Shown here: piece by piece, positions 1,479-46,454 of the stretch | Position numbering within the stretch: the stretch's first letter is position 1 | How the letters are laid out: the number at the start of each line of letters is the position of its first letter | NCBI GenBank assembly: GCA_964016885.1 | Contig: OZ024743.1 | Span: 304,172,001 to 304,236,000 of the forward strand | Direction: 5' to 3' | DNA length: 64,000 bases | DNA from: Eledone cirrhosa | Lineage: Eukaryota | Translations under genes and position numbers: made by a program | The notes under the pieces: generated by a model | Told to the model about the DNA's origin: nothing | Databases searched by the model: none | Seen by the model: only the letters and a program-made list of their open reading frames with translations

Positions 1479-1709
1479 TATATATATACGAGGTAACAAA
1501 TAATAGTTAAATGCAGTCACTTAGGTATAGTCCAGTTATGGTATTCCAGGTAGTGGATGATATCAAGGCTTGGCTTCGTTTGACTAAAAAGGCGTGTTCA
1601 TAGTGATGCTCCGGGTATGCTGTAATTCCTATGTTGTAAACACTTGGAGTAATAATAAATCAGGAAAGAAGGTTGACATGGTTTGCTATACAAAAAAGGT
1701 TTTTAATCT

Positions 1710-1822
1710 CATAGCTGACAATTGTTTCTCTGGGCTGGTAGGTCTAGAGATCGCTATTCGCTTATTTTCACGTTACTCGATCGCCAATACAAAATTATAA
1801 CCAGTCAGTTCTTCGGAGCATG
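1710..1822 (-). ncRNA. Type I hammerhead of PLE-A pLTR with ~80-nt helix II
   Basis: Minus strand: CAT-GCT-CCGAAGA-A-CTG.CTGGT...ACCAG..CAG-A-GAA-ACAATTGT-C-AGC.ATG; GUC cleavage triplet; U4C core variant. Confidence 0.75.
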
Positions 1823-2200
1823 CGAAAATGAACAGAATACACAGGCAAGAAAAGAATATACAGGCTACTATATGAAGTAGTAATGGCATTCAGTTAGAAC
1901 AATAACAACAATTACAACAATGCTATTAATAAATTATTTGAGGAGACACTGACATTACTTAGGTGGGGGGTATAGTGTATCTAAGATTTCGGCGTGTAAA
2001 ACTAGCTGTCATGAGGTAAAAGTAAAAGTTTGGCATGTACAGAGTATCGAAGTGTGTATCAATTTTAAATTATAAAGATAAGCCAGTGTTTATAGTCTTT
2101 CTTTTCATCTTCAATAACATACATGAGTGGGACAACACTGTCAAAGCTAAATAGTTGTTGAGTTAATACAGAGGTTAAGGAGGTAATATACGCATATATT

Positions 2201-2256
<56 letters not shown>

Positions 2257-2263
2257 TACACAT

Positions 2264-2305
<42 letters not shown>

Positions 2306-2599
2306 GCATGTGTACATAGACACATACATACACATCAATATACACTCGTACAAAAATATACAAACATGCAAAGACATAAGCGTGCTAATTGTAATTATGG
2401 CAAAAGGAAGGTAAAGTTACATTGTAGTAGTGATTTGAGAAAAACTAGGATTTAGGATCAAATGATGGCAGCAGTTGAGAAGGAATACGTTTGTGGGTTG
2501 ATGAGGTACTTACAGACATTTGTGTGGTATAGACTTGTGAAGGCTAGAGTATACTTAATGAATATATCCTAATTTAAAGCTATGTTGTGTTGGTTCGAT

Positions 2600-4950
2600 T
2601 CACGGAGGTTTGAATCTTATGAATTTAGTGGCAATTCTATGTCTGCAGAAGATAGATCTTTCTAACTTATTGTTAAGTAGCATTTTTACATTTTGGAGGA
2701 TATACAATAGCTCAAGATCACATAGCCCGCAGTGGGACATACCTGTACTATAGGTTTTAGCAGCCGACAACTTCGACCAGTTAATAATGTACTTAGTGCT
2801 GCTGTCCTTCAGTTCCCATATTTTTTTGGCGAGGGTTGTGGAAGCCATAAGTGCACGGTTTTTCATTGAGTTCCTGTGCACCTACCATCTTTTTTTAAAA
2901 GAACCCGCGGTGGATCCTATGTAGTTCCAGGTGGAGTTACCCGAGATGACCGTGCACATGTACACTAGGCTCGAATCGAGACATCTGTTCGCCAATGGGC
3001 ACCTATCTGGTAGGTGACAGTTACAGTTTGAGGCGCTATTTTGTGCAGCTTTTACATTCCTGTTTAGAACTCTGTTATAAGTGGGTTGTGATATATGTCC
3101 AATGGGGTTTTGCTGCTGCGCGTTTGTATGCGCTTGTGGTTGTGATGTTGTGATGTGTTTGTGCTTATAATTTGGTGCTACGTTATGTATAGGTGCAGTT
3201 GATTTACTAGAGATATTTCTGTGGTTGATCTTGCGTATGTGTGATTCTATGTTTGCTGCTGTTGAGTATGAGAGTTTTATATTAGATTTATTGAGTATTT
3301 TGTGATATCTATGCGAGATGGGGAAGTGTTTATCTATTAGTTTAAAGAATGTAGACGGCAGTCTAGTTTTTATAGAGGAGTTGAATATTGGGTTGAACCA
3401 TAGGTATTTTCTTTGTCTGTTTCTTCTATTGTTTCTTGGGTTTACGTTATTAGTGTTTTGGCCGTTTACTCCAGGTGTTACGTGTCTAACCCTATGTCTA
3501 GTCAAGTTATTTCTATTATTATGTGAGCGGTTGGAGTAGTAATTACTAGGATTGTTTACGTTGTCTTTATTCACTATATACTGCAGTTTATCTTTATGAC
3601 CGGCTCTACATAATGCTGCATTATAATAGTCAGCATGCTCGTTGAGGATTTCTAGGTTTGAGGATAAGCGGGATATTCAGAGGGATATAATATGTGCTAT
3701 GGATCTAATTATGGATTTGGGGTGGTTTGAGTTGTAACTAATGTTGGCAAGATTTTCATTATTTTTGTGGAAAGGTTCTATTAATCCAGTATTTAGATTT
3801 AGAGTCACATCTAGAAAATTTACCTTCTTATGGTTCAGTTCGTAGGTAATACTTAGGCCTAGTTTTTTTAAGAATATTCTAATATTTTTTCTTAGTCTTT
3901 CCATGCTCTGGTTTTTTAGGTTCCTAGCTATAAGTAACGTGTCATCCCTATAAATTCCTCCTTGGAGGTTACTGAATTCCTTATGTAGGTTGTGTGCTAT
4001 GAATAGCCCCACGATATCTGTGATTTGCGCAGAATCATTTGATTCCATTGTTATAGCGAAACTATTTATTCTATCCTTTCTTACCCAGTAGCTATTTTTA
4101 AAATGTATGATAGTCCTTCTAGCCGCTATTATTATTTCAATTTCATCATGGGTAAGATCAGAGTTATTTTGGGCAAATATAAGCTAGGGTGGGCTGGGGA
4201 TATGGATGCATAGTAGTCGTCTATATCAAATTGTATGAAGTTACACGTCTCCCTATTTTGTATTTTATTGAACCATTTAATTGCCTCGTTAGTGTTGCCC
4301 CATAAATTGATTTCTAGTTTACCCTTTATTTGTGCGATTACCCTATCTAGAATGTTCTTGCTAATTTTACCTATGTCTGACTTGGATGGGCATATTAATC
4401 TAATGGTGGGGTTAGTTTCAAAGTTATTTTTGTGATCCTTCAGGTTAAATGTTGGGTTGCACGGGGTTAGCGGTTCGGTCCTATCTGGAATTCCGAGTTT
4501 ATTAACTATCTTGAGGCCCTCCACGTTAATGCTGATGAGTGTAGATTCATTTGTTTTTTTATATTTTTCACGCTGGATAAAGCTATTGTATGTGTTAATG
4601 TCCATAGAGTATACGTTTGATGTTTTGTCTGCTTTTAGTGTCTTTTAGTTTTTTTAGTAGTGTATTTAAGTCATTTTGCAATTTGTTGTGATTTGTTCCT
4701 TTTATAAATTTAGTTTCAGTTATCATCTTCATAAGGTCCAGCTCGAAGGCATCGAGTGCGGGGTTGTTTGGCGGGTTTTGCAGGATTTAAACCCGTAATT
4801 CTCCTTAGAAAATTCCTTTGCGTTGGTATTCGGTCCCTTATCGAAATGGTAAGCTTTCCATCGGACCCTGCGGATGAAATCATTAGTCCGTCGTATCATG
4901 CCCAGTGTATAGTCCTTTTTTGTAGTTATAGGTATGTTTTTCAGTGACAT
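2600..4950 (-). pseudogene. PLE-A polyprotein (RT + GIY-YIG endonuclease), frameshifted
   Basis: Fragments with FIQFDIDDYYASI, GGIYRDD, VNFLDVTL, WFNPIF, CNC..CPL..CL, VY..NYIGST, CGLC..E..LNNK..CRH. Confidence 0.92.
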
Positions 4951-5242
4951 ACCTATACGGTGCTACTCCATGTTGTTGCCGTGCGTTAATGGTGTTGCTC
5001 AACCAGGTGGGAGCTAAATATACGGGGTAATAATTAATAGTTAAATGCAGTCCACTTAGGTATAGTCCAGTTATGGTATTCCAGGTAGTGGATGATATCA
5101 ACGCTTGGCTTGTTTTGACTCAACAAGGCGTGTTCATAGTGATGCTGCGGGTATACTGTAATTCCTATGTTGTAAACACTTGGAGTAATAATAAATCAGG
5201 AAAGATGGTTGACATGGTTTGCTATACAAAAAAGGTTTTTAA

Positions 5243-5363
5243 TCTCATAGCTGACAATTGTTTCTCTGAACTGGTAGGTCTAGAGATCGCTATTCGCTTA
5301 TTTTCACGTTACTCGATCGCCAATACAAAATTATAACCAGTCAGTTCTTCGGAGCATGCGAGA
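5243..5363 (-). ncRNA. Type I hammerhead of PLE-A upstream pLTR
   Basis: Second copy of 1710-1822; helix I extends TCTC.CAT.GCT/AGC.ATG.AGA. Confidence 0.75.
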
Positions 5364-5420
5364 ATAAAGAGAATGCACAGGCAAGAAAAGAATATACAGG
5401 CTACTATATGAAGTAATAAT

Positions 5421-5611
5421 TGTTTCTACTTTAGGCACTAGGCCAGCAATTACCCAGTACATTACTGGTACTTTATTTTATCGACCCCGTAAGGATGAAA
5501 GGCAAAGTTAACCTCGGCTGGATTTGAACTCAGACTGTAAAGGGACGTAACTATGCTAGAACGCATGGCGTCCAACCCTATACCGATACTGCCAGTTCAC
5601 CACCCTTTACC
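5421..5611 (-). mobile_element. tRNA-derived SINE inserted in PLE-A pLTR
   Basis: Minus-strand box A TGGCAGTATCGG and box B GAGTTCAAATCC; 15-bp TSD ATATGAAGTAATAAT at 5406-5420 and 5612-5626; empty site at ~1869-1885. Confidence 0.9.
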
Positions 5612-5939
5612 ATATGAAGTAATAATGGCATTCAGTTAGAACAATAACAACGATTACAACAATGCTATTAATAAATTATTTGAGGAGACCCTGACATTAC
5701 TTAGGTGGGGGGTATAGTGTATCTAAGATTTCGGCGTGTAAAACTAGCTGTCATGAGGCAAAAGTAAAAGTTTGGCATGTACAGAGTATCGAAGTGTGTA
5801 TCAATTTTAAATTATAAAGATAAGCCAGTGTTTACAGTCTTTCTTTTCATCTTCAATAACATACATGAGTGGGACAACACTGTCAAAGCTAAATAGTTGT
5901 TGAGTTAATACAGAGGTTAAGGAGGTAATATACGCATAT

Positions 5940-5984
<45 letters not shown>

Positions 5985-6548
5985 CACATGCATGTGTACA
6001 TAGACCCATACATACACATCAATATACACTCGTACAAAAATATACATACATGCAAAGAGATAAGCGTGCTAATTGTAATTATGGCAAAAGGAAGGTAAAG
6101 TTACATTGTAGTAGTGATTTGAGAAAAACTAGGATTTAGGATCAAATGATGGCAGCAGCTGAGAAGGAATAAGTTTGTCGGTTGATGAGGTACTTACAGA
6201 CATGTGTGTGGTATAGACTTGTGAAGGCTAGAGTATACTTAATGAATATATCTTAATTTAAAGCTATGTTGTGTTGGTTCGATTCACGGAGGTTTGAATC
6301 TTATGAATTTAGTGGCAATTCTATGTCTGCAGAAGATAGATCTTTCTAACTTATTGTTAAGTAGCCTTTTTACATTTTGGAGGATATACAATAGCTCAAG
6401 ATCACATAGCCCGCAGTGGGACATACCTGTACTATAGGTTTTAGCAGCCGACAACTTCGACCAGTTAATACTGTAGTTAGTGCTACTGTCCTTCAGTTCC
6501 CATATTTTTTTTTGGCGAGGGTTGTGGAACCCATAAGTGCACTGTTTT

Positions 6549-9290
6549 CATGAACATGATAAGTGAAACTAAATTTAAAAAAGGAACAAATCACAACAAA
6601 TTGCAAAATGACTTAAATACACTACTAAAAAAACTAAAAGACACTAACGGTATCATAGTAAAAGCAGACAAAGCATCAAACGTATACTCTATGGACATTA
6701 ACACATACAATAGCTTTATCCAGCGTGAACTACATAAAAAATATAAAAAACAAATGAATCTACACTCACCAGCATTAAGGTGGAGGGCCTCAAGATAGTT
6801 AATAAACTCGGAATTCCAGATAGGACCGAACCGCTAACCCCGTGCAACCCAACATTTAACCTGAAGGATCACAAAAATAACTTTGAAACTAACCCCACCA
6901 TTAAATTAATATGCCCATCCAAGTCAGACATAGGTAAAATTAGCAAGAACATTCTAGATAGGGTAATCGCACAAATAAAGGGTAAACTAGAAATCAATTT
7001 ATGGGGCAACACTAACGAGGCAATTAAATGGTTCAATAAAATACAAAATAGGGAGACGTGTAACTTCATACAATTTGATATAGACGACTACTATGCATCC
7101 ATATCCCCAGCCCACCCTAGATTATATTTGCCCAAAATAACTCTGATCTTACCCATGATGAAATTGAAATAATAATAGCGGCTAGAAGGACTATCATAAA
7201 ATTTTAAAATAGCTACTGGGTAAGAAAGGATAGAATAAATAGCTTCGATATAACAATGGGATCAAATGATTCTGCGCAAATCACAGATATCGTGGGGCTA
7301 TTCATAGCACACAACCTACATAAGGAATTCAGTAACCTCCAAGGAGGAATTTATAGGGACGACACGTTACTTATAGCTAGGAACCTAAACAACCAGAGCA
7401 TGGAAAGACTAAGAAAAAATATTAGAATATTCTTCAAAAAACTAAGCCTAAATATTACTTACGAACTGAACCATAAGAAGGTAAATTTTCTAGATGTGAC
7501 TCTAAATCTAAATACTGGATTAATAGAAGCTTTCAACAAAAATAATGAAAATCTTGCCTACATTAGTTACAACTCAAACCACCCCAAATCCATAATTAGA
7601 TCCATAGCACGTAGTATATCCCTCCGAATATGCCGCTTATCCTCAAACCTAGACATCTTTAACGAGCATGCTGACTATTATAATGCAGCATTACGTAGGG
7701 CCGGTCATAAAGATAAACTGCAGTATATAGTGAATACAGACAACGTAAACAATCCTAGTAATTACTACTCCAACCGCTCACATAATAATAGAAATAACTT
7801 GACTAGACATAGGGTTAGACACATAACACCTGGAGTAAACGGCCAAAACACTAATAACGTAAACCCAAGAAACAATAGAAGACACAGACAAAGAAAATAC
7901 CTATGGTTCAACCCAATATTCAACTCCTCTATAAAAACTAGACTGCCCTCTACATTCTTTAAACTAATAGATAAACACTTCCCTATCTCGCATAGATATC
8001 ACAAAATACTCAATAGATCTACTATAAAACTCTCATACTCAACAGCAGCAAACATAGAATCACACATACTCAAGATCAACCACAGAAATATCTCTAGTAA
8101 ATCAACTGCACCTATACATAACGTAGCACCAAATTATAAGCACAAACACATCACAACATCACAACCACAAGCGCATACAAACGCGCAGCAGCAAAACCCA
8201 ATTGGGCATATATCACAACCCACTTATATACAGAGTACTAAACAGGAATGTAAAAGCTGCACAAAATAGCGCCTCAAACTGTAACTGTCACCTACCAGAT
8301 AGGTGCCCATTGGCGAACAGATGTCTCGATTCGAGCCTAGTGTACATGTGCACGGTCATCTCGGGTAACTCCACCTGGAATTACATAGGATCCACCGCGG
8401 GTTCTTTTAAAAAAAGATGGCATGTGCACAGGCACTCAATGAAAAACCGTGCACTTATGGGTTCCACAACCCTCGCCAAAAAAATATGGGAACTGAAGGA
8501 CAGCAGCACTAACTACAGTATTAACTGGTCGAAGTTGTCGGCTGCTAAAACCTATAGTACAGGTATGTCCCACTGCGGGCTATGTGATCTTGAGCTATTG
8601 TATATCCTCCAAAATGTAAAAAGGCTACTTAACGATAAGTTAGAAAGATCTATCTTCTGCAGACATAGAATTGCCACTAAATTCATAAGATTCAAACCTC
8701 CGTGAATCGAACCAACACAACATAGCTTTAAATTAGGATACCTACTACCCACAGAAATATATTCATTAAGTATACTCAAGCCTTCACAAGTCTATACCAC
8801 ACAAATGTCTGTAAGTACCGCATCAACCCACAAACATATTCCTTCTCAGCTGCTGCCATCATTTGATCCTAAATCCTAGTTTTTCTCAAATCACTACTAC
8901 AATGTAACTTTACCTTCCTTTTGACATAATTACAATTAGCACGCTTATCTCTTTGCATGTATGTATATTTTTGTACTAGTGTATATTGATGTGTATGTAT
9001 GTGTCTATGTACACATGCATGTGTATATATATATATATGTGTGTGTATATATGTGTGTGTGTGTGTGTGTATACATATATGCGTATATTACCTCCTTAAC
9101 CTCTGTATTAACACAACAACTATTTAGCTTTGACAGTGTTGTCCCACTCATGTATGTTATTGAAGATGAAAAGAAAGACTGTAAACACTGGCTTATCTTT
9201 ATAATTTAAAATTGATACACACTTCGATACTCTGTACATGCCAAACTTTTACTTTTGCCTCATGACAGCTAGTTTTACACGCCGAAATCT
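6549..9290 (+). mobile_element. PLE family A, inverted copy truncated at both ends
   Basis: Reverse complement of ~1980-4735; joins the minus-strand copy at ~6549. Confidence 0.9.
6550..8705 (+). pseudogene. PLE-A polyprotein (RT + GIY-YIG), frameshifted
   Basis: ORFs 6550-6798 (IVKADK), 6780-7172, 7256-8269 (MGSNDSAQITD, YRDD), 8202-8705 (NYIGST). Confidence 0.92.
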
Positions 9291-9506
9291 GTGTGTGTGT
9301 GTCTATGCTGTTTGGCACGCGTATAGAAATTGGTTATACAAATTTTAGCATAACATTGTTCGATTAATTGGAGATAAATCTCTCTTGAAACATGTATAAC
9401 TAAAAATGATTTAAAAGGAAATTTTTACCATTCATATACATTATTATATATACTTATATATATACATTTTTCTCTCTCTCTCTCTCTATGACTTAACTGA
9501 GAATAG

Positions 9507-9588
9507 ACTCCCTGATGACGCAATGAATTCTCGACAGTTGGATTACGTAACTGTCTTTATCCCATTGCAGAAACTAATTAGTTGGAGT
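9507..9588 (+). ncRNA. Type I hammerhead ribozyme (array unit)
   Basis: ACTCC-CTGATGA-C-GCAATG..GACAGTT..AACTGTC..CATTGC-A-GAA-ACTAATTAGT-T-GGAGT; intact core, palindromic helix III, predicted cut after GUU (9583); outer stem ACTTAA/TTAAGT. Confidence 0.88.
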
Positions 9589-10088
9589 GAAAATTTAAGT
9601 AAGTAAAAAAAAAAAAAAAAATTTTTTTTTAAAATTTTTTAAAAATTTTTTTTAAAAAATATTTTCTTATTTTACGTCCTTTATATTATTGTTCTGCATT
9701 CTCCTGCATTGAACCACCTAGGTACTATGACATAACCTGTGTATTTGCTGGCATGGGCGTGCATCTGTGCGCTTATGTTAGTTGATATATTAAATTATCT
9801 ATATTTATCTCCAAATCACTGATTTGTCGAGCAAACTTGTCAAAACCACTTCTAAAAAAAAATTTTTTTGGGGTGTTAGTAGGCGTCAGTCATCTTACCA
9901 TCCCATTCCTTCTAACTAGCCTCTGTGTCACGTGATTGATTCTTTAGAATCGGCCATTTGACTTGAAGCAGTGAGAATTTCGGCACATAGAATCCAGTCC
10001 TCGCAAGCAGTTCGATCTACCGAATTATTATTATTTTTATATGAGCCGCCAGTGTCCGCGCATTGCCTGGAGACTTAACTGAGAATAG

Positions 10089-10170
10089 ACTCCCTGATGA
10101 CGCAATGAATTCTCGACAGTTGGATTACGTAACTGTCTTTATCCCATTGCAGAAACTAATTAGTTGGAGT
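10089..10170 (+). ncRNA. Type I hammerhead ribozyme (array unit)
   Basis: Identical to 9507-9588. Confidence 0.88.
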
Positions 10171-10662
10171 GAAAATTTAAGTAAGTAAAAAAAAATTTTT
10201 TAAAAAAATTTTTAAAAAATTTTTTTTAAAAAATATTTTCTTATTTTACGTCCTTTATATTATTGTTCTGCATTCTCCTGCATTGAACCACCTAGGTACT
10301 ATGACATAACCTGTGTATCTGCTGGCATGGGCGTGCATATGTGCGCTTATGTTAGTTGATATATTAAATTATCTATATTTATCTCCAAATCACTGATTTG
10401 TCGAGCAAACTTGTCAAAACCACTTCTAAAAAAAAATTTTTTTGGGGTGTTAGTAGGCGTCAGTCATCTTACCATCCCATTCCTTCTAACTAGCCTCTGT
10501 GTCACGTGATTGATTCTTTAGAATCGGCCATTTGACTTGAAGCAGTGAGAATTTCGGCACATAGAATCCAGTCCTCGCAAGCTGTTCGATCTACCGAATT
10601 ATTATTATTTTTATATGAGCCGCCAGTGTCCGCGCATTGCCTGGAGACTTAACTGAGAATAG

Positions 10663-10744
10663 ACTCCCTGATGACGCAATGAATTCTCGACAGTTGGATT
10701 ACGTAACTGTCTTTATCCCATTGCAGAAACTAATTAGTTGGAGT
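10663..10744 (+). ncRNA. Type I hammerhead ribozyme (array unit)
   Basis: Identical to 9507-9588. Confidence 0.88.
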
Positions 10745-11236
10745 GAAAATTTAAGTAAGTAAAAAAAAATTTTTTTAAAAAATTTTTAAAAAATTTTTTT
10801 TAAAAAATATTTTCTTATTTTACGTCCTTTATATTATTGTTCTGCATTCTCCTGCATTGAACCACCTAGGTACTATGACATAACCTGTGTATCTGCTGGC
10901 ATGGGCGTGCATATGTGCGCTTATGTTAGTTGATATATTAAATTATCTATATTTATCTCCAAATCACTGATTTGTCGAGCAAACTTGTCAAAACCACTTC
11001 TAAAAAAAAATTTTTTTGGGGTGTTAGTAGGCGTCAGTCATCTTACCATCCCATTCCTTCTAACTAGCCTCTGTGTCACGTGATTGATTCTTTAGAATCG
11101 GCCATTTGACTTGAAGCAGTGAGAATTTCGGCACATAGAATCCAGTCCTCGCAAGCTGTTCGATCTACCGAATTATTATTATTTTTATATGAGCCGCCAG
11201 TGTCCGCGCATTGCCTGGAGACTTAACTGAGAATAG

Positions 11237-11318
11237 ACTCCCTGATGACGCAATGAATTCTCGACAGTTGGATTACGTAACTGTCTTTATCCCATTGCAG
11301 AAACTAATTAGTTGGAGT
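11237..11318 (+). ncRNA. Type I hammerhead ribozyme (array unit)
   Basis: Identical to 9507-9588. Confidence 0.88.
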
Positions 11319-11810
11319 GAAAATTTAAGTAAGTAAAATAAAATTTTTTAAAAAAATTTTTTAAAAATTTTTTTTAAAAAATATTTTCTTATTTTACGTC
11401 CTTTATATTATTGTTCTGCATTCTCCTGCATTGAACCACCTAGGTACTATGACATAACCTGTGTATTTGCTGGCATGGGCGTGCATCTGTGCGCTTATGT
11501 TAGTTGATATATTAAATTATCTATATTTATCTCCAAATCACTGATTTGTCGAGCAAACTTGTCAAAACCACTTCTAAAAAAAAATTTTTTTGGGGTGTTA
11601 GTAGGCGTCAGTCATCTTACCATCCCATTCCTTCTAACTAGCCTCTGTGTCACGTGATTGATTCTTTAGAATCGGCCATTTGACTTGAAGCAGTGAGAAT
11701 TTCGGCACATAGAATCCAGTCCTCGCAAGCTGTTCGATCTACCGAATTATTATTATTTTTATATGAGCCGCCAGTGTCCGCGCATTGCCTGGAGACTTAA
11801 CTGAGAATAG

Positions 11811-11892
11811 ACTCCCTGATGACGCAATGAATTCTCGACAGTTGGATTACGTAACTGTCTTTATCCCATTGCAGAAACTAATTAGTTGGAGT
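11811..11892 (+). ncRNA. Type I hammerhead ribozyme (array unit)
   Basis: Identical to 9507-9588. Confidence 0.88.
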
Positions 11893-12209
11893 GAAAATTT
11901 AAGTAAGTAAAAAAAAAAAAAAAATTTTTTTTAAAAATTTTTAAAAATTTTTTTAAAAAAATATTTTCTTATTTTACGTCCTTTATATTATTGTTCTGCA
12001 TTCTCCTGCATTGAACCACCTAGGTACTATGACATAACCTGTGTATTTGCTGGCATGGGCGTGCATCTGTGCGCTTATGTTAGTTGATATATTAAATTAT
12101 CTATATTTATCTCCAAATCACTGATTTGTCGAGCAAACTTGTCAAAACCACTTCTAAAAAAAAATTTTTTGGGGGTGTTAGTAGGCGTCAGTCATCTTAC
12201 CATCCCATT

Positions 12210-12637
12210 CCTCGGCTGGATTTGAACTCAGACTGTAAAGGGACGTAACTATGCTAGAACGCATGGCGTCCAACCCTATACCGATACTGCCAGTTCACCA
12301 CCCTTTACCATATGAAGTAATAATGGCATTCAGTTAGAACAATAACAACGATTACAACAATGCTATTAATAAATTATTTGAGGAGACCCTGACATTACTT
12401 AGGTGGGGGGTATAGTGTATCTAAGATTTCGGCGTGTAAAACTAGCTGTCATGAGGCAAAAGTAAAAGTTTGGCATGTACAGAGTATCGAAGTGTGTATC
12501 AATTTTAAATTATAAAGATAAGCCAGTGTTTACAGTCTTTCTTTTCATCTTCAATAACATACATGAGTGGGACAACACTGTCAAAGCTAAATAGTTGTTG
12601 AGTTAATACAGAGGTTAAGGAGGTAATATACGCATAT

Positions 12638-12682
<45 letters not shown>

Positions 12683-15600
12683 CACATGCATGTGTACATA
12701 GACCCATACATACACATCAATATACACTCGTACAAAAATATACATACATGCAAAGAGATAAGCGTGCTAATTGTAATTATGGCAAAAGGAAGGTAAAGTT
12801 ACATTGTAGTAGTGATTTGAGAAAAACTAGGATTTAGGATCAAATGATGGCAGCAGCTGAGAAGGAATAAGTTTGTCGGTTGATGAGGTACTTACAGACA
12901 TGTGTGTGGTATAGACTTGTGAAGGCTAGAGTATACTTAATGAATATATCTTAATTTAAAGCTATGTTGTGTTGGTTCGATTCGCGGAGGTTTGAATCTT
13001 ATGAATTTAGTGGCAATTCTATGTCTGCAGAAGATAGATCTTTCTAACTTATTGTTAAGTAGCCTTTTTACATTTTGGAGGATATACAATAGCTCAAGAT
13101 CACATAGCCCGCAGTGGGACATACCTGTACTATAGGTTTTAGCAGCCGACAACTTCGACCAGTTAATACTGTAGTTAGTGCTACTGTCCTTCAGTTCCCA
13201 TATTTTTTTTTGGCGAGGGTTGTGGAACCCATAAGTGCACTGTTTTCATGAACATGATAAGTGAAACTAAATTTAAAAAAGGAACAAATCACAACAAATT
13301 GCAAAATGACTTAAATACACTACTAAAAAAACTAAAAGACACTAACGGTATCATAGTAAAAGCAGACAAAGCATCAAACGTATACTCTATGGACATTAAC
13401 ACATACAATAGCTTTATCCAGCGTGAACTACATAAAAAATATAAAAAACAAATGAATCTACACTCACCAGCATTAAGGTGGAGGGCCTCAAGATAGTTAA
13501 TAAACTCGGAATTCCAGATAGGACCGAACCGCTAACCCCGTGCAACCCAACATTTAACCTGAAGGATCACAAAAATAACTTTGAAACTAACCCCACCATT
13601 AAATTAATATGCCCATCCAAGTCAGACATAGGTAAAATTAGCAAGAACATTCTAGATAGGGTAATCGCACAAATAAAGGGTAAACTAGAAATCAATTTAT
13701 GGGGCAACACTAACGAGGCAATTAAATGGTTCAATAAAATACAAAATAGGGAGACGTGTAACTTCATACAATTTGATATAGACGACTACTATGCATCCAT
13801 ATCCCCAGCCCACCCTAGATTATATTTGCCCAAAATAACTCTGATCTTACCCATGATGAAATTGAAATAATAATAGCGGCTAGAAGGACTATCATAAAAT
13901 TTTAAAATAGCTACTGGGTAAGAAAGGATAGAATAAATAGCTTCGATATAACAATGGGATCAAATGATTCTGCGCAAATCACAGATATCGTGGGGCTATT
14001 CATAGCACACAACCTACATAAGGAATTCAGTAACCTCCAAGGAGGAATTTATAGGGACGACACGTTACTTATAGCTAGGAACCTAAACAACCAGAGCATG
14101 GAAAGACTAAGAAAAAATATTAGAATATTCTTCAAAAAACTAAGCCTAAATATTACTTACGAACTGAACCATAAGAAGGTAAATTTTCTAGATGTGACTC
14201 TAAATCTAAATACTGGATTAATAGAAGCTTTCAACAAAAATAATGAAAATCTTGCCTACATTAGTTACAACTCAAACCACCCCAAATCCATAATTAGATC
14301 CATAGCACGTAGTATATCCCTCCGAATATGCCGCTTATCCTCAAACCTAGACATCTTTAACGAGCATGCTGACTATTATAATGCAGCATTACGTAGGGCC
14401 GGTCATAAAGATAAACTGCAGTATATAGTGAATACAGACAACGTAAACAATCCTAGTAATTACTACTCCAACCGCTCACATAATAATAGAAATAACTTGA
14501 CTAGACATAGGGTTAGACACATAACACCTGGAGTAAACGGCCAAAACACTAATAACGTAAACCCAAGAAACAATAGAAGACACAGACAAAGAAAATACCT
14601 ATGGTTCAACCCAATATTCAACTCCTCTATAAAAACTAGACTGCCCTCTACATTCTTTAAACTAATAGATAAACACTTCCCTATCTCGCATAGATATCAC
14701 AAAATACTCAATAGATCTACTATAAAACTCTCATACTCAACAGCAGCAAACATAGAATCACACATACTCAAGATCAACCACAGAAATATCTCTAGTAAAT
14801 CAACTGCACCTATACATAACGTAGCACCAAATTATAAGCACAAACACATCACAACATCACAACCACAAGCGCATACAAACGCGCAGCAGCAAAACCCAAT
14901 TGGGCATATATCACAACCCACTTATATACAGAGTACTAAACAGGAATGTAAAAGCTGCACAAAATAGCGCCTCAAACTGTAACTGTCACCTACCAGATAG
15001 GTGCCCATTGGCGAACAGATGTCTCGATTCGAGCCTAGTGTACATGTGCACGGTCATCTCGGGTAACTCCACCTGGAATTACATAGGATCCACCGCGGGT
15101 TCTTTTAAAAAAAGATGGCATGTGCACAGGCACTCAATGAAAAACCGTGCACTTATGGGTTCCACAACCCTCGCCAAAAAAATATGGGAACTGAAGGACA
15201 GCAGCACTAACTACAGTATTAACTGGTCGAAGTTGTCGGCTGCTAAAACCTATAGTACAGGTATGTCCCACTGCGGGCTATGTGATCTTGAGCTATTGTA
15301 TATCCTCCAAAATGTAAAAAGGCTACTTAACGATAAGTTAGAAAGATCTATCTTCTGCAGACATAGAATTGCCACTAAATTCATAAGATTCAAACCTCCG
15401 TGAATCGAACCAACACAACATAGCTTTAAATTAGGATACCTACTACCCACAGAAATATATTCATTAAGTATACTCAAGCCTTCACAAGTCTATACCACAC
15501 AAATGTCTGTAAGTACCGCATCAACCCACAAACATATTCCTTCTCAGCTGCTGCCATCATTTGATCCTAAATCCTAGTTTTTCTCAAATCACTACTACAA

Positions 15601-15988
15601 TGTAACTTTACCTTCCTTTTGACATAATTACAATTAGCACGCTTATCTCTTTGCATGTATGTATATTTTTGTACTAGTGTATATTGATGTGTATGTATGT
15701 GTCTATGTACACATGCATGTGTATATATATATATATGTGTGTGTATATATGTGTGTGTGTGTGTGTGTATACATATATGCGTATATTACCTCCTTAACCT
15801 CTGTATTAACACAACAACTATTTAGCTTTGACAGTGTTGTCCCACTCATGTATGTTATTGAAGATGAAAAGAAAGACTGTAAACACTGGCTTATCTTTAT
15901 AATTTAAAATTGATACACACTTCGATACTCTGTACATGCCAAACTTTTACTTTTGCCTCATGACAGCTAGTTTTACACGCCGAAATCT
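12210..15988. mobile_element. Duplicated SINE half, PLE-A minus-strand 3' part and PLE-A plus-strand copy
   Basis: Copy of 5512-9290. Confidence 0.9.
13248..15403 (+). pseudogene. PLE-A polyprotein (RT + GIY-YIG), frameshifted, duplicate
   Basis: Translations identical to 6550-8705. Confidence 0.92.
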
Positions 15989-16204
15989 GTGTGTGTGTGT
16001 CTATGCTGTTTGGCACGCGTATAGAAATTGGTTATACAAATTTTAGCATAACATTGTTCGATTAATTGGAGATAAATCTCTCTTGAAACATGTATAACTA
16101 AAAATGATTTAAAAGGAAATTTTTACCATTCATATACATTATTATATATACTTATATATATACATTTTTCTCTCTCTCTCTCTCTATGACTTAACTGAGA
16201 ATAG

Positions 16205-16286
16205 ACTCCCTGATGACGCAATGAATTCTCGACAGTTGGATTACGTAACTGTCTTTATCCCATTGCAGAAACTAATTAGTTGGAGT
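16205..16286 (+). ncRNA. Type I hammerhead ribozyme (array unit)
   Basis: Identical to 9507-9588. Confidence 0.88.
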
Positions 16287-16786
16287 GAAAATTTAAGTAA
16301 GTAAAAAAAAAAAAAAAAATTTTTTTTTAAAATTTTTTAAAAATTTTTTTTAAAAAATATTTTCTTATTTTACGTCCTTTATATTATTGTTCTGCATTCT
16401 CCTGCATTGAACCACCTAGGTACTATGACATAACCTGTGTATTTGCTGGCATGGGCGTGCATCTGTGCGCTTATGTTAGTTGATATATTAAATTATCTAT
16501 ATTTATCTCCAAATCACTGATTTGTCGAGCAAACTTGTCAAAACCACTTCTAAAAAAAAATTTTTTTGGGGTGTTAGTAGGCGTCAGTCATCTTACCATC
16601 CCATTCCTTCTAACTAGCCTCTGTGTCACGTGATTGATTCTTTAGAATCGGCCATTTGACTTGAAGCAGTGAGAATTTCGGCACATAGAATCCAGTCCTC
16701 GCAAGCAGTTCGATCTACCGAATTATTATTATTTTTATATGAGCCGCCAGTGTCCGCGCATTGCCTGGAGACTTAACTGAGAATAG

Positions 16787-16868
16787 ACTCCCTGATGACG
16801 CAATGAATTCTCGACAGTTGGATTACGTAACTGTCTTTATCCCATTGCAGAAACTAATTAGTTGGAGT
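16787..16868 (+). ncRNA. Type I hammerhead ribozyme (array unit)
   Basis: Identical to 9507-9588. Confidence 0.88.
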
Positions 16869-17360
16869 GAAAATTTAAGTAAGTAAAAAAAAATTTTTTT
16901 AAAAATTTTTTAAAAAATTTTTTTTAAAAAATATTTTCTTATTTTACGTCCTTTATATTATTGTTCTGCATTCTCCTGCATTGAACCACCTAGGTACTAT
17001 GACATAACCTGTGTATCTGCTGGCATGGGCGTGCATATGTGCGCTTATGTTAGTTGATATATTAAATTATCTATATTTATCTCCAAATCACTGATTTGTC
17101 GAGCAAACTTGTCAAAACCACTTCTAAAAAAAAATTTTTTTGGGGTGTTAGTAGGCGTCAGTCATCTTACCATCCCATTCCTTCTAACTAGCCTCTGTGT
17201 CACGTGATTGATTCTTTAGAATCGGCCATTTGACTTGAAGCAGTGAGAATTTCGGCACATAGAATCCAGTCCTCGCAAGCTGTTCGATCTACCGAATTAT
17301 TATTATTTTTATATGAGCCGCCAGTGTCCGCGCATTGCCTGGAGACTTAACTGAGAATAG

Positions 17361-17442
17361 ACTCCCTGATGACGCAATGAATTCTCGACAGTTGGATTAC
17401 GTAACTGTCTTTATCCCATTGCAGAAACTAATTAGTTGGAGT
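17361..17442 (+). ncRNA. Type I hammerhead ribozyme (array unit)
   Basis: Identical to 9507-9588. Confidence 0.88.
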
Positions 17443-17934
17443 GAAAATTTAAGTAAGTAAAAAAAAATTTTTTTAAAAAATTTTTAAAAAATTTTTTTTA
17501 AAAAATATTTTCTTATTTTACGTCCTTTATATTATTGTTCTGCATTCTCCTGCATTGAACCACCTAGGTACTATGACATAACCTGTGTATCTGCTGGCAT
17601 GGGCGTGCATATGTGCGCTTATGTTAGTTGATATATTAAATTATCTATATTTATCTCCAAATCACTGATTTGTCGAGCAAACTTGTCAAAACCACTTCTA
17701 AAAAAAAATTTTTTTGGGGTGTTAGTAGGCGTCAGTCATCTTACCATCCCATTCCTTCTAACTAGCCTCTGTGTCACGTGATTGATTCTTTAGAATCGGC
17801 CATTTGACTTGAAGCAGTGAGAATTTCGGCACATAGAATCCAGTCCTCGCAAGCTGTTCGATCTACCGAATTATTATTATTTTTATATGAGCCGCCAGTG
17901 TCCGCGCATTGCCTGGAGACTTAACTGAGAATAG

Positions 17935-18016
17935 ACTCCCTGATGACGCAATGAATTCTCGACAGTTGGATTACGTAACTGTCTTTATCCCATTGCAGAA
18001 ACTAATTAGTTGGAGT
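17935..18016 (+). ncRNA. Type I hammerhead ribozyme (array unit)
   Basis: Identical to 9507-9588. Confidence 0.88.
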
Positions 18017-18508
18017 GAAAATTTAAGTAAGTAAAAAAAAATTTTTTAAAAAAATTTTTTTAAAATTTTTTTTAAAAAATATTTTCTTATTTTACGTCCT
18101 TTATATTATTGTTCTGCATTCTCCTGCATTGAACCACCTAGGTACTATGACATAACCTGTGTATTTGCTGGCATGGGCGTGCATCTGTGCGCTTATGTTA
18201 GTTGATATATTAAATTATCTATATTTATCTCCAAATCACTGATTTGTCGAGCAAACTTGTCAAAACCACTTCTAAAAAAAAATTTTTTTGGGGTGTTAGT
18301 AGGCGTCAGTCATCTTACCATCCCATTCCTTCTAACTAGCCTCTGTGTCACGTGATTGATTCTTTAGAATCGGCCATTTGACTTGAAGCAGTGAGAATTT
18401 CGGCACATAGAATCCAGTCCTCGCAAGCTGTTCGATCTACCGAATTATTATTATTTTTATATGAGCCGCCAGTGTCCGCGCATTGCCTGGAGACTTAACT
18501 GAGAATAG

Positions 18509-18590
18509 ACTCCCTGATGACGCAATGAATTCTCGACAGTTGGATTACGTAACTGTCTTTATCCCATTGCAGAAACTAATTAGTTGGAGT
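18509..18590 (+). ncRNA. Type I hammerhead ribozyme (array unit)
   Basis: Identical to 9507-9588. Confidence 0.88.
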
Positions 18591-19088
18591 GAAAATTTAA
18601 GTAAGTAAAAAAAAAAAAAAAATTTTTTTTAAAAATTTTTAAAAATTTTTTTAAAAAAATATTTTCTTATTTTACGTCCTTTATATTATTGTTCTGCATT
18701 CTCCTGCATTGAACCACCTAGGTACTATGACATAACCTGTGTATTTGCTGGCATGGGCGTGCATCTGTGCGCTTATGTTAGTTGATATATTAAATTATCT
18801 ATATTTATCTCCAAATCACTGATTTGTCGAGCAAACTTGTCAAAACCACTTCTAAAAAAAAATTTTTTGGGGGTGTTAGTAGGCGTCAGTCATCTTACCA
18901 TCCCATTCCTTCTAACTAGCCTCTGTGTCACGTGATTGATTCTTTAGAATCGGCCATTTGACTTGAAGCAGTGAGAATTTCGGCACATAGAATCCAGTCC
19001 TCGCAAGCTGTTCGATCTACCGAATTATTATTATTTTTATATGAGCCGCCAGTGTCCGCGCATTGCCTGGAGACTTAACTGAGAATAG

Positions 19089-19170
19089 ACTCCCTGATGA
19101 CGCAATGAATTCTCGACAGTTGGATTACGTAACTGTCTTTATCCCATTGCAGAAACTAATTAGTTGGAGT
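19089..19170 (+). ncRNA. Type I hammerhead ribozyme (array unit)
   Basis: Identical to 9507-9588. Confidence 0.88.
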
Positions 19171-19659
19171 GAAAATTTAAGTAAGTAAAAAAAGAAATTT
19201 TTTTTAAAAATTTTTTAAAAATTTTTTTAAAAAAATATTTTCTTATTTTACGTCCTTTATATTATTGTTCTGCATTCTCCTGCATTGAACCACCTAGGTA
19301 CTATGACATAACCTGTGTATTTGCTGGCATGGGCGTGCATCTGTGCGCTTATGTTAGTTGATATATTAAATTATCTATATTTATCTCCAAATCACTGATT
19401 TGTCGAGCAAACTTGTCAAAACCACTTCTAAAAAAAAATTTTTTTGGGGTGTTAGTAGGCGTCAGTCATCTTACCATTCCTTCTAACTAGCCTCTGTGTC
19501 ACGTGATTGATTCTTTAGAATCGGCCATTTGACTTGAAGCAGTGAGAATTTCGGCACATAGAATCCAGTCCTCGCAAGCTGTTCGATCTACCGAATTATT
19601 ATTATTTTTATATGAGCCGCCAGTGTCCGCGCATTGCCTGGAGACTTAACTGAGAATAG

Positions 19660-19741
19660 ACTCCCTGATGACGCAATGAATTCTCGACAGTTGGATTACG
19701 TAACTGTCTTTATCCCATTGCAGAAACTAATTAGTTGGAGT
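19660..19741 (+). ncRNA. Type I hammerhead ribozyme (array unit)
   Basis: Identical to 9507-9588. Confidence 0.88.
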
Positions 19742-20233
19742 GAAAATTTAAGTAAGTAAAAAAAAATTTTTTAAAAAAATTTTTTTTTAATTTTTTTTAA
19801 AAAATATTTTCTTATTTTACGTCCTTTATATTATTGTTCTGCATTCTCCTGCATTGAACCACCTAGGTACTATGACATAACCTGTGTATTTGCTGGCATG
19901 GGCGTGCATCTGTGCGCTTATGTTAGTTGATATATTAAATTATCTATATTTATCTCCAAATCACTGATTTGTCGAGCAAACTTGTCAAAACCACTTCTAA
20001 AAAAAAATTTTTTTGGGGTTTTCGTAGGCGTCAGTCATCTTACCATCCCATTCCTTCTAACTAGCCTCTGTGTCACGTGATTGATTCTTTAGAATCGGCC
20101 ATTTGACTTGAAGCAGTGAGAATTTCGGCACATAGAATCCAGTCCTCGCAAGCAGTTCGATCTACCGAATTATTATTATTTTTATATGAGCCGCCAGTGT
20201 CCGCGCATTGCCTGGAGACTTAACTGAGAATAG

Positions 20234-20315
20234 ACTCCCTGATGACGCAATGAATTCTCGACAGTTGGATTACGTAACTGTCTTTATCCCATTGCAGAAA
20301 CTAATTAGTTGGAGT
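20234..20315 (+). ncRNA. Type I hammerhead ribozyme (array unit)
   Basis: Identical to 9507-9588. Confidence 0.88.
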
Positions 20316-20785
20316 GAAAATTTAAGTAAGTAAAAAAAAAAATTTTTTTTTTAAAATATTTTCTTATTTTACGTCCTTTATATTATTGTTCTGCATTCTC
20401 CTGCATTGAACCACCTAGGTACTATGACATAACCTGTGTATTTGCTGGCATGGGCGTGCATCTGTGCGCTTATGTTAGTTGATATATTAAATTATCTATA
20501 TTTATCTCCAAATCACTGATTTGTCGAGCAAACTTGTCAAAACCACTTCTAAAAAAAAATTTTTTTGGGGTGTTAGTAGGCGTCAGTCATCTTACCATCC
20601 CATTCCTTCTAACTAGCCTCTGTGTCACGTGATTGATTCTTTAGAATCGGCCATTTGACTTGAAGCAGTGAGAATTTCGGCACATAGAATCCAGTCCTCG
20701 CAAGCTGTTCGATCTACCGAATTATTATTATTTTTATATGAGCCGCCAGTGTCCGCGCATTGCCTGGAGACTTAACTGAGAATAG

Positions 20786-20867
20786 ACTCCCTGATGACGC
20801 AATGAATTCTCGACAGTTGGATTACGTAACTGTCTTTATCCCATTGCAGAAACTAATTAGTTGGAGT
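20786..20867 (+). ncRNA. Type I hammerhead ribozyme (array unit)
   Basis: Identical to 9507-9588. Confidence 0.88.
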
Positions 20868-21067
20868 GAAAATTTAAGTAAGTAAAAAAAAATTTTTTTA
20901 AAAATTTTTTTAAAATTTTTTTAAAAAAATATTTTCTTATTTTACGTCCTTTATATTATTGTTCTGCATTCTCCTGCATTGAACCACCTAGGTACTATGA
21001 CATAACCTGTGTATTTGCTGGCATGGGCGTGCATCTGTGCGCTTATGTTAGTTGATATATTAAATTA

Positions 21068-21134
<67 letters not shown>

Positions 21135-23176: not shown

Positions 23177-23325
23177 CATATATATTTTTTTTATCCCGTT
23201 TCTTGATCCATTCAAGCTACTATGTATATACATACACATATATATATCCAGGAGATTCCAACCAGAATGGTTGTTTTTTTTTAAGGGTATGTCAATATTT
23301 ATTTATAAAACTAACCTATATTATA

Positions 23326-23387
23326 TTTTATCTGATGAAAGCGCTCCATAGTTTGGTCTGGTGGCCCTTGAAATATGTATAATGAAA
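23326..23387 (+). ncRNA. Type I hammerhead related to the PLE-F terminus
   Basis: TTTTAT-CTGATGA-AAG...CTT-GAA-ATATGTAT-A-ATGAAA; flanks resemble 62070-62205. Confidence 0.7.
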
Positions 23388-23875
23388 TAAATATGGTTTT
23401 ATAAATATAGTTTCCATTTGTTATTATGTTGTATATATATATATATATATATATTGTATATGCATATATATTTGTTTTACCGGTTCCTTGATCCATTCCA
23501 GCCACTATGTATATACATACATATATATTCATACATATGGGTGTGTATGTGCGTGCGTGTGAGTGTGCGTGTGTGTGTATTCGTGTGTGTGCGTACGTGT
23601 GTGTGTGTGTGTGTGTGTATTTGCGTATGTGTGGTGTGTGTGTGTGTGTGTGTGTGTATTTGCGTATGTGTGGTGTGTGTGTGTGTGTGTGTGTCTGTGT
23701 TTGTGTGTGTGTCTATGCTGTTTGGCACGCGTATAGAAATTGTTTATACAAATTTTAGCATAACATTGTTCGATTAATTGGAGATTAAGCTCTATTGAAA
23801 CATGTGTAACTAAAAATGATTTAAAAGGAAATTTTTTCCATTCATGTACATGATTATATATACTTATGTATATAC

Positions 23876-24320
<445 letters not shown>

Positions 24321-24366
24321 TAAGTTATTCCGGGTTCAATCAGGGTTTATATATATATATATATAT

Positions 24367-26607
24367 TGTTATGCTTTGGAAGGGTCAATAAGGAAAACAT
24401 GCACCAGGTGCTTTCACTTCAATTTATTATAAATTAAATTTATAAATTTAAGAATGTATAAATTTCCGGTTGGTGGTTGGTTCCACAACCAGACGATTGT
24501 TCATATATTGTCAAATTTCTTTCGTCACACTTTATGTGACCTCTTCAGTGACTGGGGATTATTTTCTTGTTTTGTGCTTCTCCTTTGTTCTGTCCTACGC
24601 CATTTTGTTTTTGTGTGTGTTGTGTGTTTAGTTTGCGCATGTATTAAATCCGGGTGTCTGTGGGTGTTTATATTTGTTTATTTATTTGTTTATTTACATG
24701 TTACTGGTTGGTTGGTTGTTCTATTTGTGTGTGTTTTCATTTTGTCCTTAATTGTCAGTTGTGATGTTGCTATCCCATTCATGTTTTCTATTTAATTTTG
24801 TTTGGAGTTCATTTATGTTTATTGCCTCTGTGATTCGTCTAAACATTGCGTCTTTTCTGTGTGTAGATTCTATTTTTATTTCTATGTTCTCTAATGTAAC
24901 CTTATGTTCTATTTTAGCATGTTGGTGGAGTACAGATGATTCTTTACTATCTTGAAGCTCTCGCCAGTGTTCATTTATCCGTTCTCCTATACTGCTATAT
25001 GTCTCACCTATGTACACTATATTCTTATCTCTACATTGTCCTTCAGTAAATGTTATGCTATATACTACATTTCTAGTTTTACAGTTAATATGGGGGCTTA
25101 GTTTACAGATTATATATTTCTTATCTATACAGGGAGGTCTTTGAAAAGGGTATGTATTGCTAATAACTGTTTTTATGGAGGTAGCTGGTCTTTCTACTAT
25201 CTTAATATTGAGATTATGTTTATCTAGGGCCCTTCTAAATTTGTAAGCTAATTCACCTCTAGGGTTGTATTGATGAACATTACACTATGGTATTTACTGC
25301 TTTCATACCATGAGTTTATTCTATTAACCTTATTCCTAGTTCTTTCTATTCTATTCCAAAATGTGCTCCTATACAAGGGCAGGTCCCATTTGTATCATTA
25401 TTTACCATTTTTTTCCCATTTGTTTCTGGCTCTTCCATATATTCTGATTTTATCTCTCTGATTGTAAACTCAGAACTGCATACGGTGGATGAAGTGTTGT
25501 ATGTGTCTCTCTAGTTCTTTGGGGTTGCACATGCGGGACACGTTTCTCATCACCCGTACCAAATCCGCAATCAATATGTTGATTTTGGTGTGGTCCGAAA
25601 CAGCTGAGTTTCGGTGGATCAGATATTTGGAAGACATGGGTTTGGCATAATGGGAATGGAGAATTTGTTTTTTGTTATTAATGGTTTCTAACCAGAGCTC
25701 TGTGTCTAGTACAGGTAATCGATGGCTGGGGTGTTTGCTTGGATAGTCTATAGTAACTCTAATACTCTGGTGGATGCAGTTAGCTATTTGTTGGATGCTT
25801 TCCATGGTGTTTTTCTCTAATTCCTGACCTTTCTCTAGAGGGGGTGTTTTTCACTACGATGTTTATATCATCAACGTAGCGGGAGTACATTATCAGGTTT
25901 AAGAGGTTGCTGTCTTCTAATTGTTCTTTAAGTTTAAGTCTATTGTCCCACCATACCATGAATAGGTTAGCTATGTCACCTGCAATGCTAACACCAATGG
26001 CTGCTCCTTCCTCTTGGGCATATGTTTTTCCATTAAATTTGAACATATGTTCCTTAGGGTTAATTTTATACTGGCCCCCACCACATGTGCAATCATTTTC
26101 TTTAGTTCATCATGGTTTTGGGGGTTTCTATGGCTCTGGTCCACCCGTTCCATCTATCTGTGTGGGTTTTCTTGGCCATTGATGTAATGGTAGGTGGTCT
26201 GCCTCTTGCTGGTCTTGTAGCGCACAGGTTGCTAAGGTCATATGTATCTAGATAATCATTACTATAGGTAAGTTTAAGTAGGAGTCCCAGCTCACTGGTA
26301 TCAATCCCACGGAATTCAACATTGCTCTGACTGTTCATATCTACGCATTTCTCCACAGCAAAATCCACGTCAATGGATGGATATAAGGACACAACATCCA
26401 CACTTCCTATTATACGGTTTGTTAGGTCCCTAGATCGGTTACTTTCGGTGATTCTGCTGAGGATGTCCTCCGTGCTGTCACATATATCTGCGGACATTTC
26501 AATGATGGGGCGTATGATCAGGGAGATGAAGTAGGAAAGTCTGTAGTTACTAGCAATGATAGCTCCACAGACTGGCCGTGTTGGTGGTCCTGTGACAAAT
26601 TCAGAAA

Positions 26608-30831: not shown

Positions 30832-30868
<37 letters not shown>

Positions 30869-30973: not shown

Positions 30974-30985
30974 ATATATATATAC

Positions 30986-45945: not shown

Positions 45946-46454
<509 letters not shown>

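Follow-up and report, generated by a model that had tools for sequence, protein, structure and literature searches.

The array in the window

The stretch of DNA examined here, called the window, comprises 64,000 nucleotides (nt) of Eledone cirrhosa (GenBank assembly GCA_964016885.1, contig OZ024743.1, positions 304,172,001 to 304,236,000 of the forward strand) and holds a tandem array of a non-coding repeat with one hammerhead ribozyme per unit, organized like a retrozyme (Table 1). Its plus strand carries 14 type I hammerhead motifs, 5 within 9490-12212 and 9 within 16188-21074, and one 82-nt string (ACTCC, CTGATGA, a long helix II, GAAA, ACTAATTAGT, T and GGAGT) is common to all 14. Cleavage is predicted after positions 9583, 10165, 10739, 11313 and 11887 in the first array and after 16281, 16863, 17437, 18011, 18585, 19165, 19736, 20310 and 20862 in the second. 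The complete monomers (n = 12) measure 552-582 bp, with 7 of the 12 at 574 bp. No stop-to-stop frame of at least 120 amino acids (aa) lies inside either array, and GC content in 1-kb bins is ~31-37%, below 50%.

A preliminary description, made from the letters alone, had reported 14 intact type I hammerheads (5 + 9) in non-coding head-to-tail units, and the identical motifs and the lack of reading frames bear this out. The counts of its two arrays stand, but their independence does not, as positions 12210-18910 repeat 5512-12212 at 99.9% identity, with 5 differences. The two arrays are a single 9-ribozyme insertion, of which a 6.7-kb tandem duplication copied the first 5 ribozymes together with a neighbouring Penelope-like element (PLE). 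The repeat spanning 5512-18910 may be a real duplication or an assembly artefact. At 12210, a retrozyme unit is joined with a 3-nt overlap to a repeat resembling a short interspersed nuclear element (SINE). Among the units of the window, 36 of 47 variable columns fall in the 5' A/T tract and 11 elsewhere; the contrast drawn earlier between an invariant ribozyme and variable A/T tracts is therefore real as a pattern and weak as evidence of selection, since so few variable columns lie outside the tract. That units had seemed to start with the ribozyme is an effect of 5' truncation, as the array begins at monomer position 481, counted from the predicted cut. In a paralogous host repeat at 23702-24370, the same flanks enclose (TC)n-(AT)n-(AG)n and no array, which shows that the window array was inserted into an (AT)n tract.

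A young and dispersed family

With the 574-bp unit as query, 962 candidate places were found in the 3.0-Gb genome. Scoring 40 of these gave 312 matches, and the full-length ones among the matches listed have 89-100% identity. An exact pattern of the ribozyme core has 9,073 matches genome-wide, compared to 0 for the reversed control. Two sets of loci were examined: 36 young loci, which are the best-scoring matches, and 40 further loci chosen for divergent ribozymes among the first 100 matches listed, which share 63-90% identity with the window unit. Units of the family are about 520-585 bp long (531-585 bp in 131 monomers). Young full units have 3.1 site differences between loci and 0.4-0.7 within loci (~490 nt; 129 of the 131 monomers), a low divergence that implies recent activity. 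A PLE reading frame contiguous with the unit was found in none of the 40 divergent loci. These comparisons indicate that the window array is a member of a young, recently active and dispersed family of non-coding hammerhead repeats with subfamilies, designated family X.

Fixed ends and head-to-head arms

In the 36 young loci, 62 arm ends could be resolved, and every one lies at monomer position ~95 ("short") or ~213 ("long"), 118 nt apart. Sixty junctions, shown base by base (the anchors missed some), all run into (AT)n or AT-rich tracts, nearly all through TATAT. Two arms stand head to head in 27 of the 36 loci, and every one of the 26 in which both ends are resolved has one short and one long end; 9 of the 36 loci have a single arm with (AT)n on both sides. 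Exact junction patterns occur 295 times (short) and 541 times (long) in the genome, with 0 control matches, the two patterns covering different subfamily breadths. On one contig (C1), whose pattern lists are complete at 50 short and 86 long junctions, pairs within 10 kb comprise 32 of the short-long kind, every one of them diverging; short-short pairs are absent, and in the single long-long pair both junctions share a strand. The 5' truncation points are scattered over the unit (17 of 62 in the A/T tract, none at positions 2-5), and the inner joints between arms are mostly blunt or have few-base overlaps or short inserts. Any target-site duplication is masked by the (AT)n targets.

A tail, an inverted arm and a (TA)n bias are hallmarks of PLEs (PMC8557442), and a tail at one end with an inverted 5'-truncated copy has been described for them (PMC3846280). 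In vitro, the tail of a PLE lies between two start sites of reverse transcription, with cutting and extension of both DNA strands, and a dimer is predicted for the protein (PMC11167929). As positive controls, two PLE families of this genome (PLE-C and PLE-D, described below; 8 loci each) also end in (AT)n at two points, both of which are used in each two-armed copy seen. The fixed ends, one-sided tail, inverted 5'-truncated arm and (AT)n target of family X thus make up the PLE-type insertion signature. In the literature searched, which covered few subscription journals, no paper reports such a tail or inverted arm for a retrozyme in its listing or accessible text.

A tail hairpin shared by three retrozyme families

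Two further families follow the same end rule. Family Y has a 482-nt non-coding hammerhead unit that ends at 81 and about 190, and among 20 loci examined all 4 that are two-armed have mixed ends. Family Z has a 457-467-nt non-coding hammerhead unit that ends at 86 and about 192; of its 16 loci, 7 are two-armed with mixed ends and 3 are irregular. The tails of the three families align (0/300 shuffles), and each opens with a GTTC...TT-GAAC-CAC hairpin; the inner pairs of this hairpin vary between the families: TGCA/TGCA, TGGC/GCCA and TGGT/ACCA. A looser pattern of this hairpin gives 12,042 matches, compared to 206 for controls. In a second tail hairpin, pairing is kept in 17 variants, and 4 of 30 tail pairs are changed on both sides. 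We infer that the shared GTTC/GAAC hairpin is a candidate protein-recognition element. The window also holds, at 878-1118, a two-armed mini-insertion of family Y from which the ribozyme part is missing.

Covariation and predicted fold of the ribozyme

The hammerhead at 10089-10170 combines an ACTCC/GGAGT helix I and a CUGAUGA core with a bipartite helix II and a palindromic helix III, ACUAAUUAGU. It also has a C-A mismatch at hammerhead positions 10.1/11.1 that the preliminary description lacks. This mismatch is not set by the search pattern: by eye, C stands at 10.1 in 99 and A at 11.1 in 100 of 100 among the matches listed. Rfam models, proposed as a check in the preliminary description, gave no hammerhead match at gathering score over the whole window, and at E<=10 over 5000-11000 they returned no hammerhead, only microsatellite-driven chance matches, probably because helix II is long.

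Covariation was assessed in an alignment (A1) of 37 variants hand-chosen out of 75 distinct ones, in which the invariance of core and helix III is imposed by the search pattern and not counted as evidence. Pairing is found in 91.3% of cells, compared to 35-47% in slid controls, and both sides are changed in 94 cells, compared to 33.9 after shuffling. One pair of the inner helix II is seen as U-A, A-U, G-C and C-G, and 6 of 9 pairs of the outer helix II have changes on both sides. Such covariation across subfamilies indicates that the ribozyme fold is maintained under selection.

Judging by predicted pairing, the loop of helix I and the internal loop of helix II likely form a pseudoknot. Three sequence solutions are found: GAGAA/TTCTC, GGAAAA/TTTTCC (in one subfamily) and TGGAAA/TTTCCA (in family Z). 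Shuffle p values are 0.01-0.04 in 3 of 7 representatives and 0.09-0.50 in the other 4; the pairing is individually non-significant in 3 of the 5 representatives of family X and unsupported in family Y (4 bp, p 0.50), and in A1 1 of its 6 pairs is changed on both sides. Pseudoknots of this type occur in about 40% of hammerheads (PMC3088659). The circular monomer has a predicted fold with z = -4.5 (40 shuffles). Outside the ribozyme, the most conserved 20-nt bin is TGTCACGTGATTGATT, at 0.92 compared to a mean of 0.77 in 31 divergent units. An RNA polymerase III B-box in the unit was considered and dropped because it is poorly conserved.

Template of the arms and mode of insertion

Variants were compared in 25 loci with at least two full units; 24 are fixed locus-wide, 20 occur in a single unit and 3 are partly shared. 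No difference between arms is found in 12 of the 14 loci with full units on both arms. For a comparison of arms, 20 short two-armed loci were picked from the junction lists. The arms of L194 cover 104-213 and 76-95, and those of L198 cover 137-213 and 335-574+1-95; as neither arm contains the other, two independent primings are implied. Inner junctions are symmetric within 2 nt in 7 of 47 cases, compared to 0.4 expected, and in L196 both arms end no more than 1 nt from the predicted cut (p about 0.04, given the 7 symmetric junctions). The arm data fit two cDNAs copied off a single RNA, in some cases linear at the cut, and they favour a circular template.

We therefore consider, with a probability of roughly 70%, that the family is a non-autonomous retrozyme of the kind without long terminal repeats (LTRs), inserted by a PLE protein, probably by way of a self-cleaved and circularized monomer RNA. 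An array would be transcribed and its hammerheads would cut the transcript to monomers, likely aided by dimers through the palindromic helix III and by the pseudoknot between helices I and II; the monomers would then be ligated to circles. A PLE protein with reverse transcriptase and GIY-YIG endonuclease, probably a dimer, would bind the two-hairpin tail and cut both strands of an (AT)n tract. One cDNA would be primed at each DNA end, at two sites that flank the tail and each end in or beside TAT. Both cDNAs would lap the same RNA 0 to about 10 times, and end joining, blunt or over a short overlap, would then link them head to head. Failure of one of the two primings would leave a single arm, as in the window.

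Several observations weigh against this reading. A homogeneous uncleaved multimer would leave most of the same marks. The elements could instead be inserted by a PLE from a linear, uncleaved multimeric transcript, with neither ribozyme nor circles needed for mobilization. We regard this as unlikely, though with a real chance of being correct. Homogeneous source arrays would yield homogeneous daughters, and the window array is heterogeneous: it contains all 3 of the partly shared variants, each in 2 of 8 units, which one circular template would explain only with later conversion or template switching. The active single-motif fold is predicted to be disfavoured by 4.7 kcal/mol relative to an alternative in which CUGAU is paired to AUUAG, and as a hammerhead cleavage site GUU is weaker. 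With the duplex predicted for the helix III palindrome (-9.0 kcal/mol), the disfavoured fold also fits dimer-assisted cleavage. Experimentally, hammerhead mutants left the insertion of PAc unaffected in vitro, so that this PLE inserts without hammerhead cleavage (PMC11167929), and among Xenopus dimers tested just 1 of 9 was cleaved (Li et al. 2026, bioRxiv 10.64898/2026.07.22.740005). A linear template is opposed, first, by variants that are fixed over all units of both arms, as in 11 of 11 units in L027, which points to a one-unit bottleneck. Furthermore, arms reach about 10 units where repeated 5' truncation should shorten arrays, compensatory changes keep the ribozyme fold, and the ends of L196 lie at the predicted cut site, although this footprint is one case.

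The remaining points concern sampling and the PLE partner. The 36 young loci are best-scoring matches, not a random sample. Between the tail of family X and those of PLE-B, -C and -D, the three families compared, similarity is not significant (p 0.25-0.83), and a search for the hairpin end upstream of the start of a PLE open reading frame gave 33 matches, compared to 7 for controls, and no hairpin-bearing PLE.

The inverted arm could instead arise by fold-back, the first cDNA priming on itself without a second priming on the RNA. Self-priming has been proposed for palindromic PLE junctions (PMC3846280), it would account for identical arms too, and the excess of symmetric inner junctions speaks for it; some of the symmetric joints may indeed be explained in this way. 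As a general source of the second arm it is improbable, since the arms of L194 and L198 cannot template each other and most inner junctions are asymmetric, with blunt joins, few-base overlaps or short inserts. Detached PLE pseudo-LTR (pLTR) monomers that were inserted singly and grew by unequal exchange at the DNA level (a model discussed in Li et al. 2026) would suit the partly shared variants and the 6.7-kb duplication in the window, which is DNA-level amplification, but this is highly improbable given that arrays of 1-10 units on both arms carry one variant set (~0.4-0.7 differences within loci, 3.1 between), that 0 of 40 divergent loci have a PLE frame contiguous with the unit, and that exchange alone leaves the multimeric arms on both sides of very young loci unexplained.

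A bolder version of insertion from a circular RNA by a PLE protein is offered tentatively, at somewhat less than even odds. A single PLE dimer would hold one circular ribozyme RNA at its two-hairpin tail, prime on both sides of a break in (AT)n at the sites next to that tail and produce twin rolling-circle arms linked head to head, with the hairpin as a portable hijack signal of at least three retrozyme families (~457-585 nt). If this is true, the arms are a genomic record of circular ribozyme RNAs being written into animal genomes, and the one-sided tail of PLEs is explained as obligate twin priming on one RNA.

How animal retrozymes are mobilized is the wider question. Their mechanism remains to be elucidated according to Li et al. 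2026, and the proposal of PLEs has rested solely on their co-occurrence with retrozymes and on similarity to pLTRs (PMC7229834; Li et al. 2026). Here, insertions in thousands of copies bear the PLE-specific mark itself: their ends are exact to the base, paired arms strictly combine one short and one long end, and the two arms derive from a single template. The PLE mechanism is constrained as well, since each event involves two primings. Rfam models miss this ribozyme, a natural variant with a long helix II, so families of its type are probably undercounted.

Penelope-like elements and the search for a partner

The PLE labels used here rest on a weak Pfam GIY-YIG match (1 of 13 frames), an Atlas look-up and sequence motifs; PLE-A, -B, -D and -F may be Nematis-like and PLE-C may be Neptune-like. 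PLE-C has open frames of up to 1,239 aa, a pLTR hammerhead and a tail of about 66 nt, and PLE-D has frames of 713-741 aa and a tail of 89 nt. PLE-C is very abundant, with 18,067 first-look candidates, and has an Asn/Thr-rich insert; copies lie at 53240-55750 and 24198-26488 (minus strand) of the window and in loci L145-L152. In a comparison that covered a few of many PLE families, no similarity to the retrozyme was found in its body. Pattern searches and locus scans for a PLE with the tail hairpin returned two more retrozyme families and PLE-F, and no such PLE. PLE-F is a coding family (L141:760-3500, L163, L169-L193) whose pLTR hammerhead has a long helix II and a palindromic helix III. Two post hoc leads are recorded as leads only: GTTC..GAACC hairpins in the 3' region of PLE-D, and a loose YTCY motif after the end points in families X, Y and Z and in PLE-B, -D and -F, not in PLE-C.

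The PLE of the window, PLE-A, occupies 1481-9290 as a partial tandem on the minus strand with an inverted arm; a copy at 5015-9290 adjoins the array. A SINE-like repeat (~5418-5612), accompanied by a ~14-bp duplication, splits PLE-A, and a hammerhead scan of PLE-A found none. A matching 118-nt tail of PLE-A was considered and rejected, as the SINE interrupts it and the PLE-A end lies ~500 nt further on.

The preliminary description had proposed a dispersed, non-autonomous retroelement, distinct from an ordinary pLTR attached to a PLE frame and mobilized by PLEs. The genome-wide core matches exclude a single-locus repeat, the 40 divergent loci agree on its separation from PLE frames, and the PLE-type end marks speak for PLE involvement. 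Its further suggestion, use of the neighbouring PLE machinery, is not supported: the PLE adjoins the array because of nested insertion and duplication, and none of the observations ties it mechanistically to the array.

Other hammerhead repeats and features of the window

A scan of ~1.0 Mb (L021-L128 and the window) gave 146 further hammerhead-like matches, some counted twice, in many other repeat families, and the genome looks very rich in hammerhead repeats missed by Rfam. Several of these hammerhead-like families have two preferred distances to (AT)n. At 55746-56849 and 30308-30984, the window carries a tandem repeat of 306 bp whose type I hammerhead is compact and has a palindromic GAAACTAGT helix III; the repeat lies in head-to-head arms and is probably another retrozyme family. 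A hammerhead repeat family with an 8-bp helix I (23286-23477, 46405-46948, 59886-60214 and 62013-62344) ends about 50 or 137 nt past the cut, at (AT)n. A 410-bp inverted repeat (98%) at 48953-49944 has a hammerhead-like motif with a long helix II on each arm. Two-armed tandem hammerhead families with periods of ~470 and 311 bp are found at L058:5500-7250 and L062:1800-3900, respectively.

Table 1. Coordinates of the array, its parts and its surroundings in the window
Feature	Position	Strand	Remark
9-hammerhead retrozyme array, truncated on its 5' side at monomer position 481; it has 8 full monomers, and its 3' end, the fixed "long" site (213), is fused to (AT)n	16188..21074	+	
Duplicate of hammerheads 1-5 of the array, interrupted by the duplication junction	9490..12212	+	
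6,698-bp tandem duplication (PLE copy, host flank, first 5 ribozymes)	5512..18910		99.9% self-match
Example of the 82-nt hammerhead, identical in all 14, predicted cleavage after 10165 (GUU)	10089..10170	+	
Predicted pseudoknot, helix I loop strand GAGAAT	10081..10086	+	
Predicted pseudoknot, helix II internal-loop strand ATTCTC	10109..10114	+	
118-nt tail between the 3' end points (monomer 95 and 213), unit 2; two hairpins predicted	10261..10378	+	
Tail hairpin GTTC-TGCA...TGCA-TT-GAAC, candidate protein-recognition element	10265..10288	+	
Conserved block TGTCACGTGATTGATT, possible promoter element	10500..10519	+	
(AT)n target microsatellite at the 3' end of the array	21075..21133		
Paralogous empty site: array absent, (TC)n-(AT)n-(AG)n between the same two flanks	23702..24370	+	

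Comparison with known systems

On every genomic feature that can be tested, the family appears to be a non-LTR retrozyme, a known kind of element, here with an unusual ribozyme and uncommonly clear genomic signs of twin-primed insertion of the PLE type: it has head-to-tail units with type I hammerheads, dispersed loci and co-existing PLEs, and its arms run straight into (AT)n as tandem units without LTR-type flanking repeats (no search for a primer-binding site or polypurine tract was made). Like the non-LTR retrozymes of animals (PMC7229834; bioRxiv 10.64898/2026.07.22.740005), it consists of tandem non-coding units with one type I hammerhead each and a GC content below 50%, and it shares with them thousands of copies, several families and co-occurrence with PLEs. 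The unit length, thought unusual at first, exceeds 150-450 bp (PMC7229834) but falls within 51-972 bp (Li et al. 2026) and is near the ~500 bp of pDo500. The ribozyme differs from those of known animal retrozymes in its bipartite ~50-nt helix II, the C-A at 10.1/11.1, the GUU site and the likely pseudoknot, although a mismatch at the helix II base is also seen in axolotl HHR_Amex2 (U-U there, C-A here). Fixed ends, a tail and inverted arms are not described for animal retrozymes in the accessible portions of PMC7229834 and Li et al. 2026. No parent pLTR was found here, whereas in Xenopus 24 of 57 families match known elements (Li et al. 2026). The words ribozyme, hammerhead and retrozyme do not occur in the main text of a 2026 annotation of octopus repeats.

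With endonuclease-bearing PLEs (PMC8557442, PMC11167929, PMC3846280), the family shares 5'-truncated partial tandems, an inverted arm, a tail at one end, (TA)n targets and a type I hammerhead upstream of the ends. Unlike PLEs, it has no reading frame and makes whole-unit head-to-tail laps on both arms, and its tail is 118 nt, compared to 30-40 bp published for PLEs and to ~66 nt in PLE-C and 89 nt in PLE-D. Chlamys elements such as MRC1 (PMC8557442) are likewise non-autonomous PLE passengers with multicopy head-to-tail insertions. The 3' ends of these algal elements are generally similar to those of their autonomous partners (PMC8557442), whereas the family described here has a hammerhead with a canonical core and no detected similarity to a partner. 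The closest parallel in unit structure is the cave-cricket pDo500 (PMC2837043), which has a tandem unit of ~500 bp, a conserved hammerhead with compensatory changes, and a proposed double-hammerhead cleavage. However, pDo500 is a satellite of about 5% of the genome with a 49-bp ribozyme, whereas here the arrays are short and dispersed, with retrotransposition junctions and an 82-nt ribozyme.

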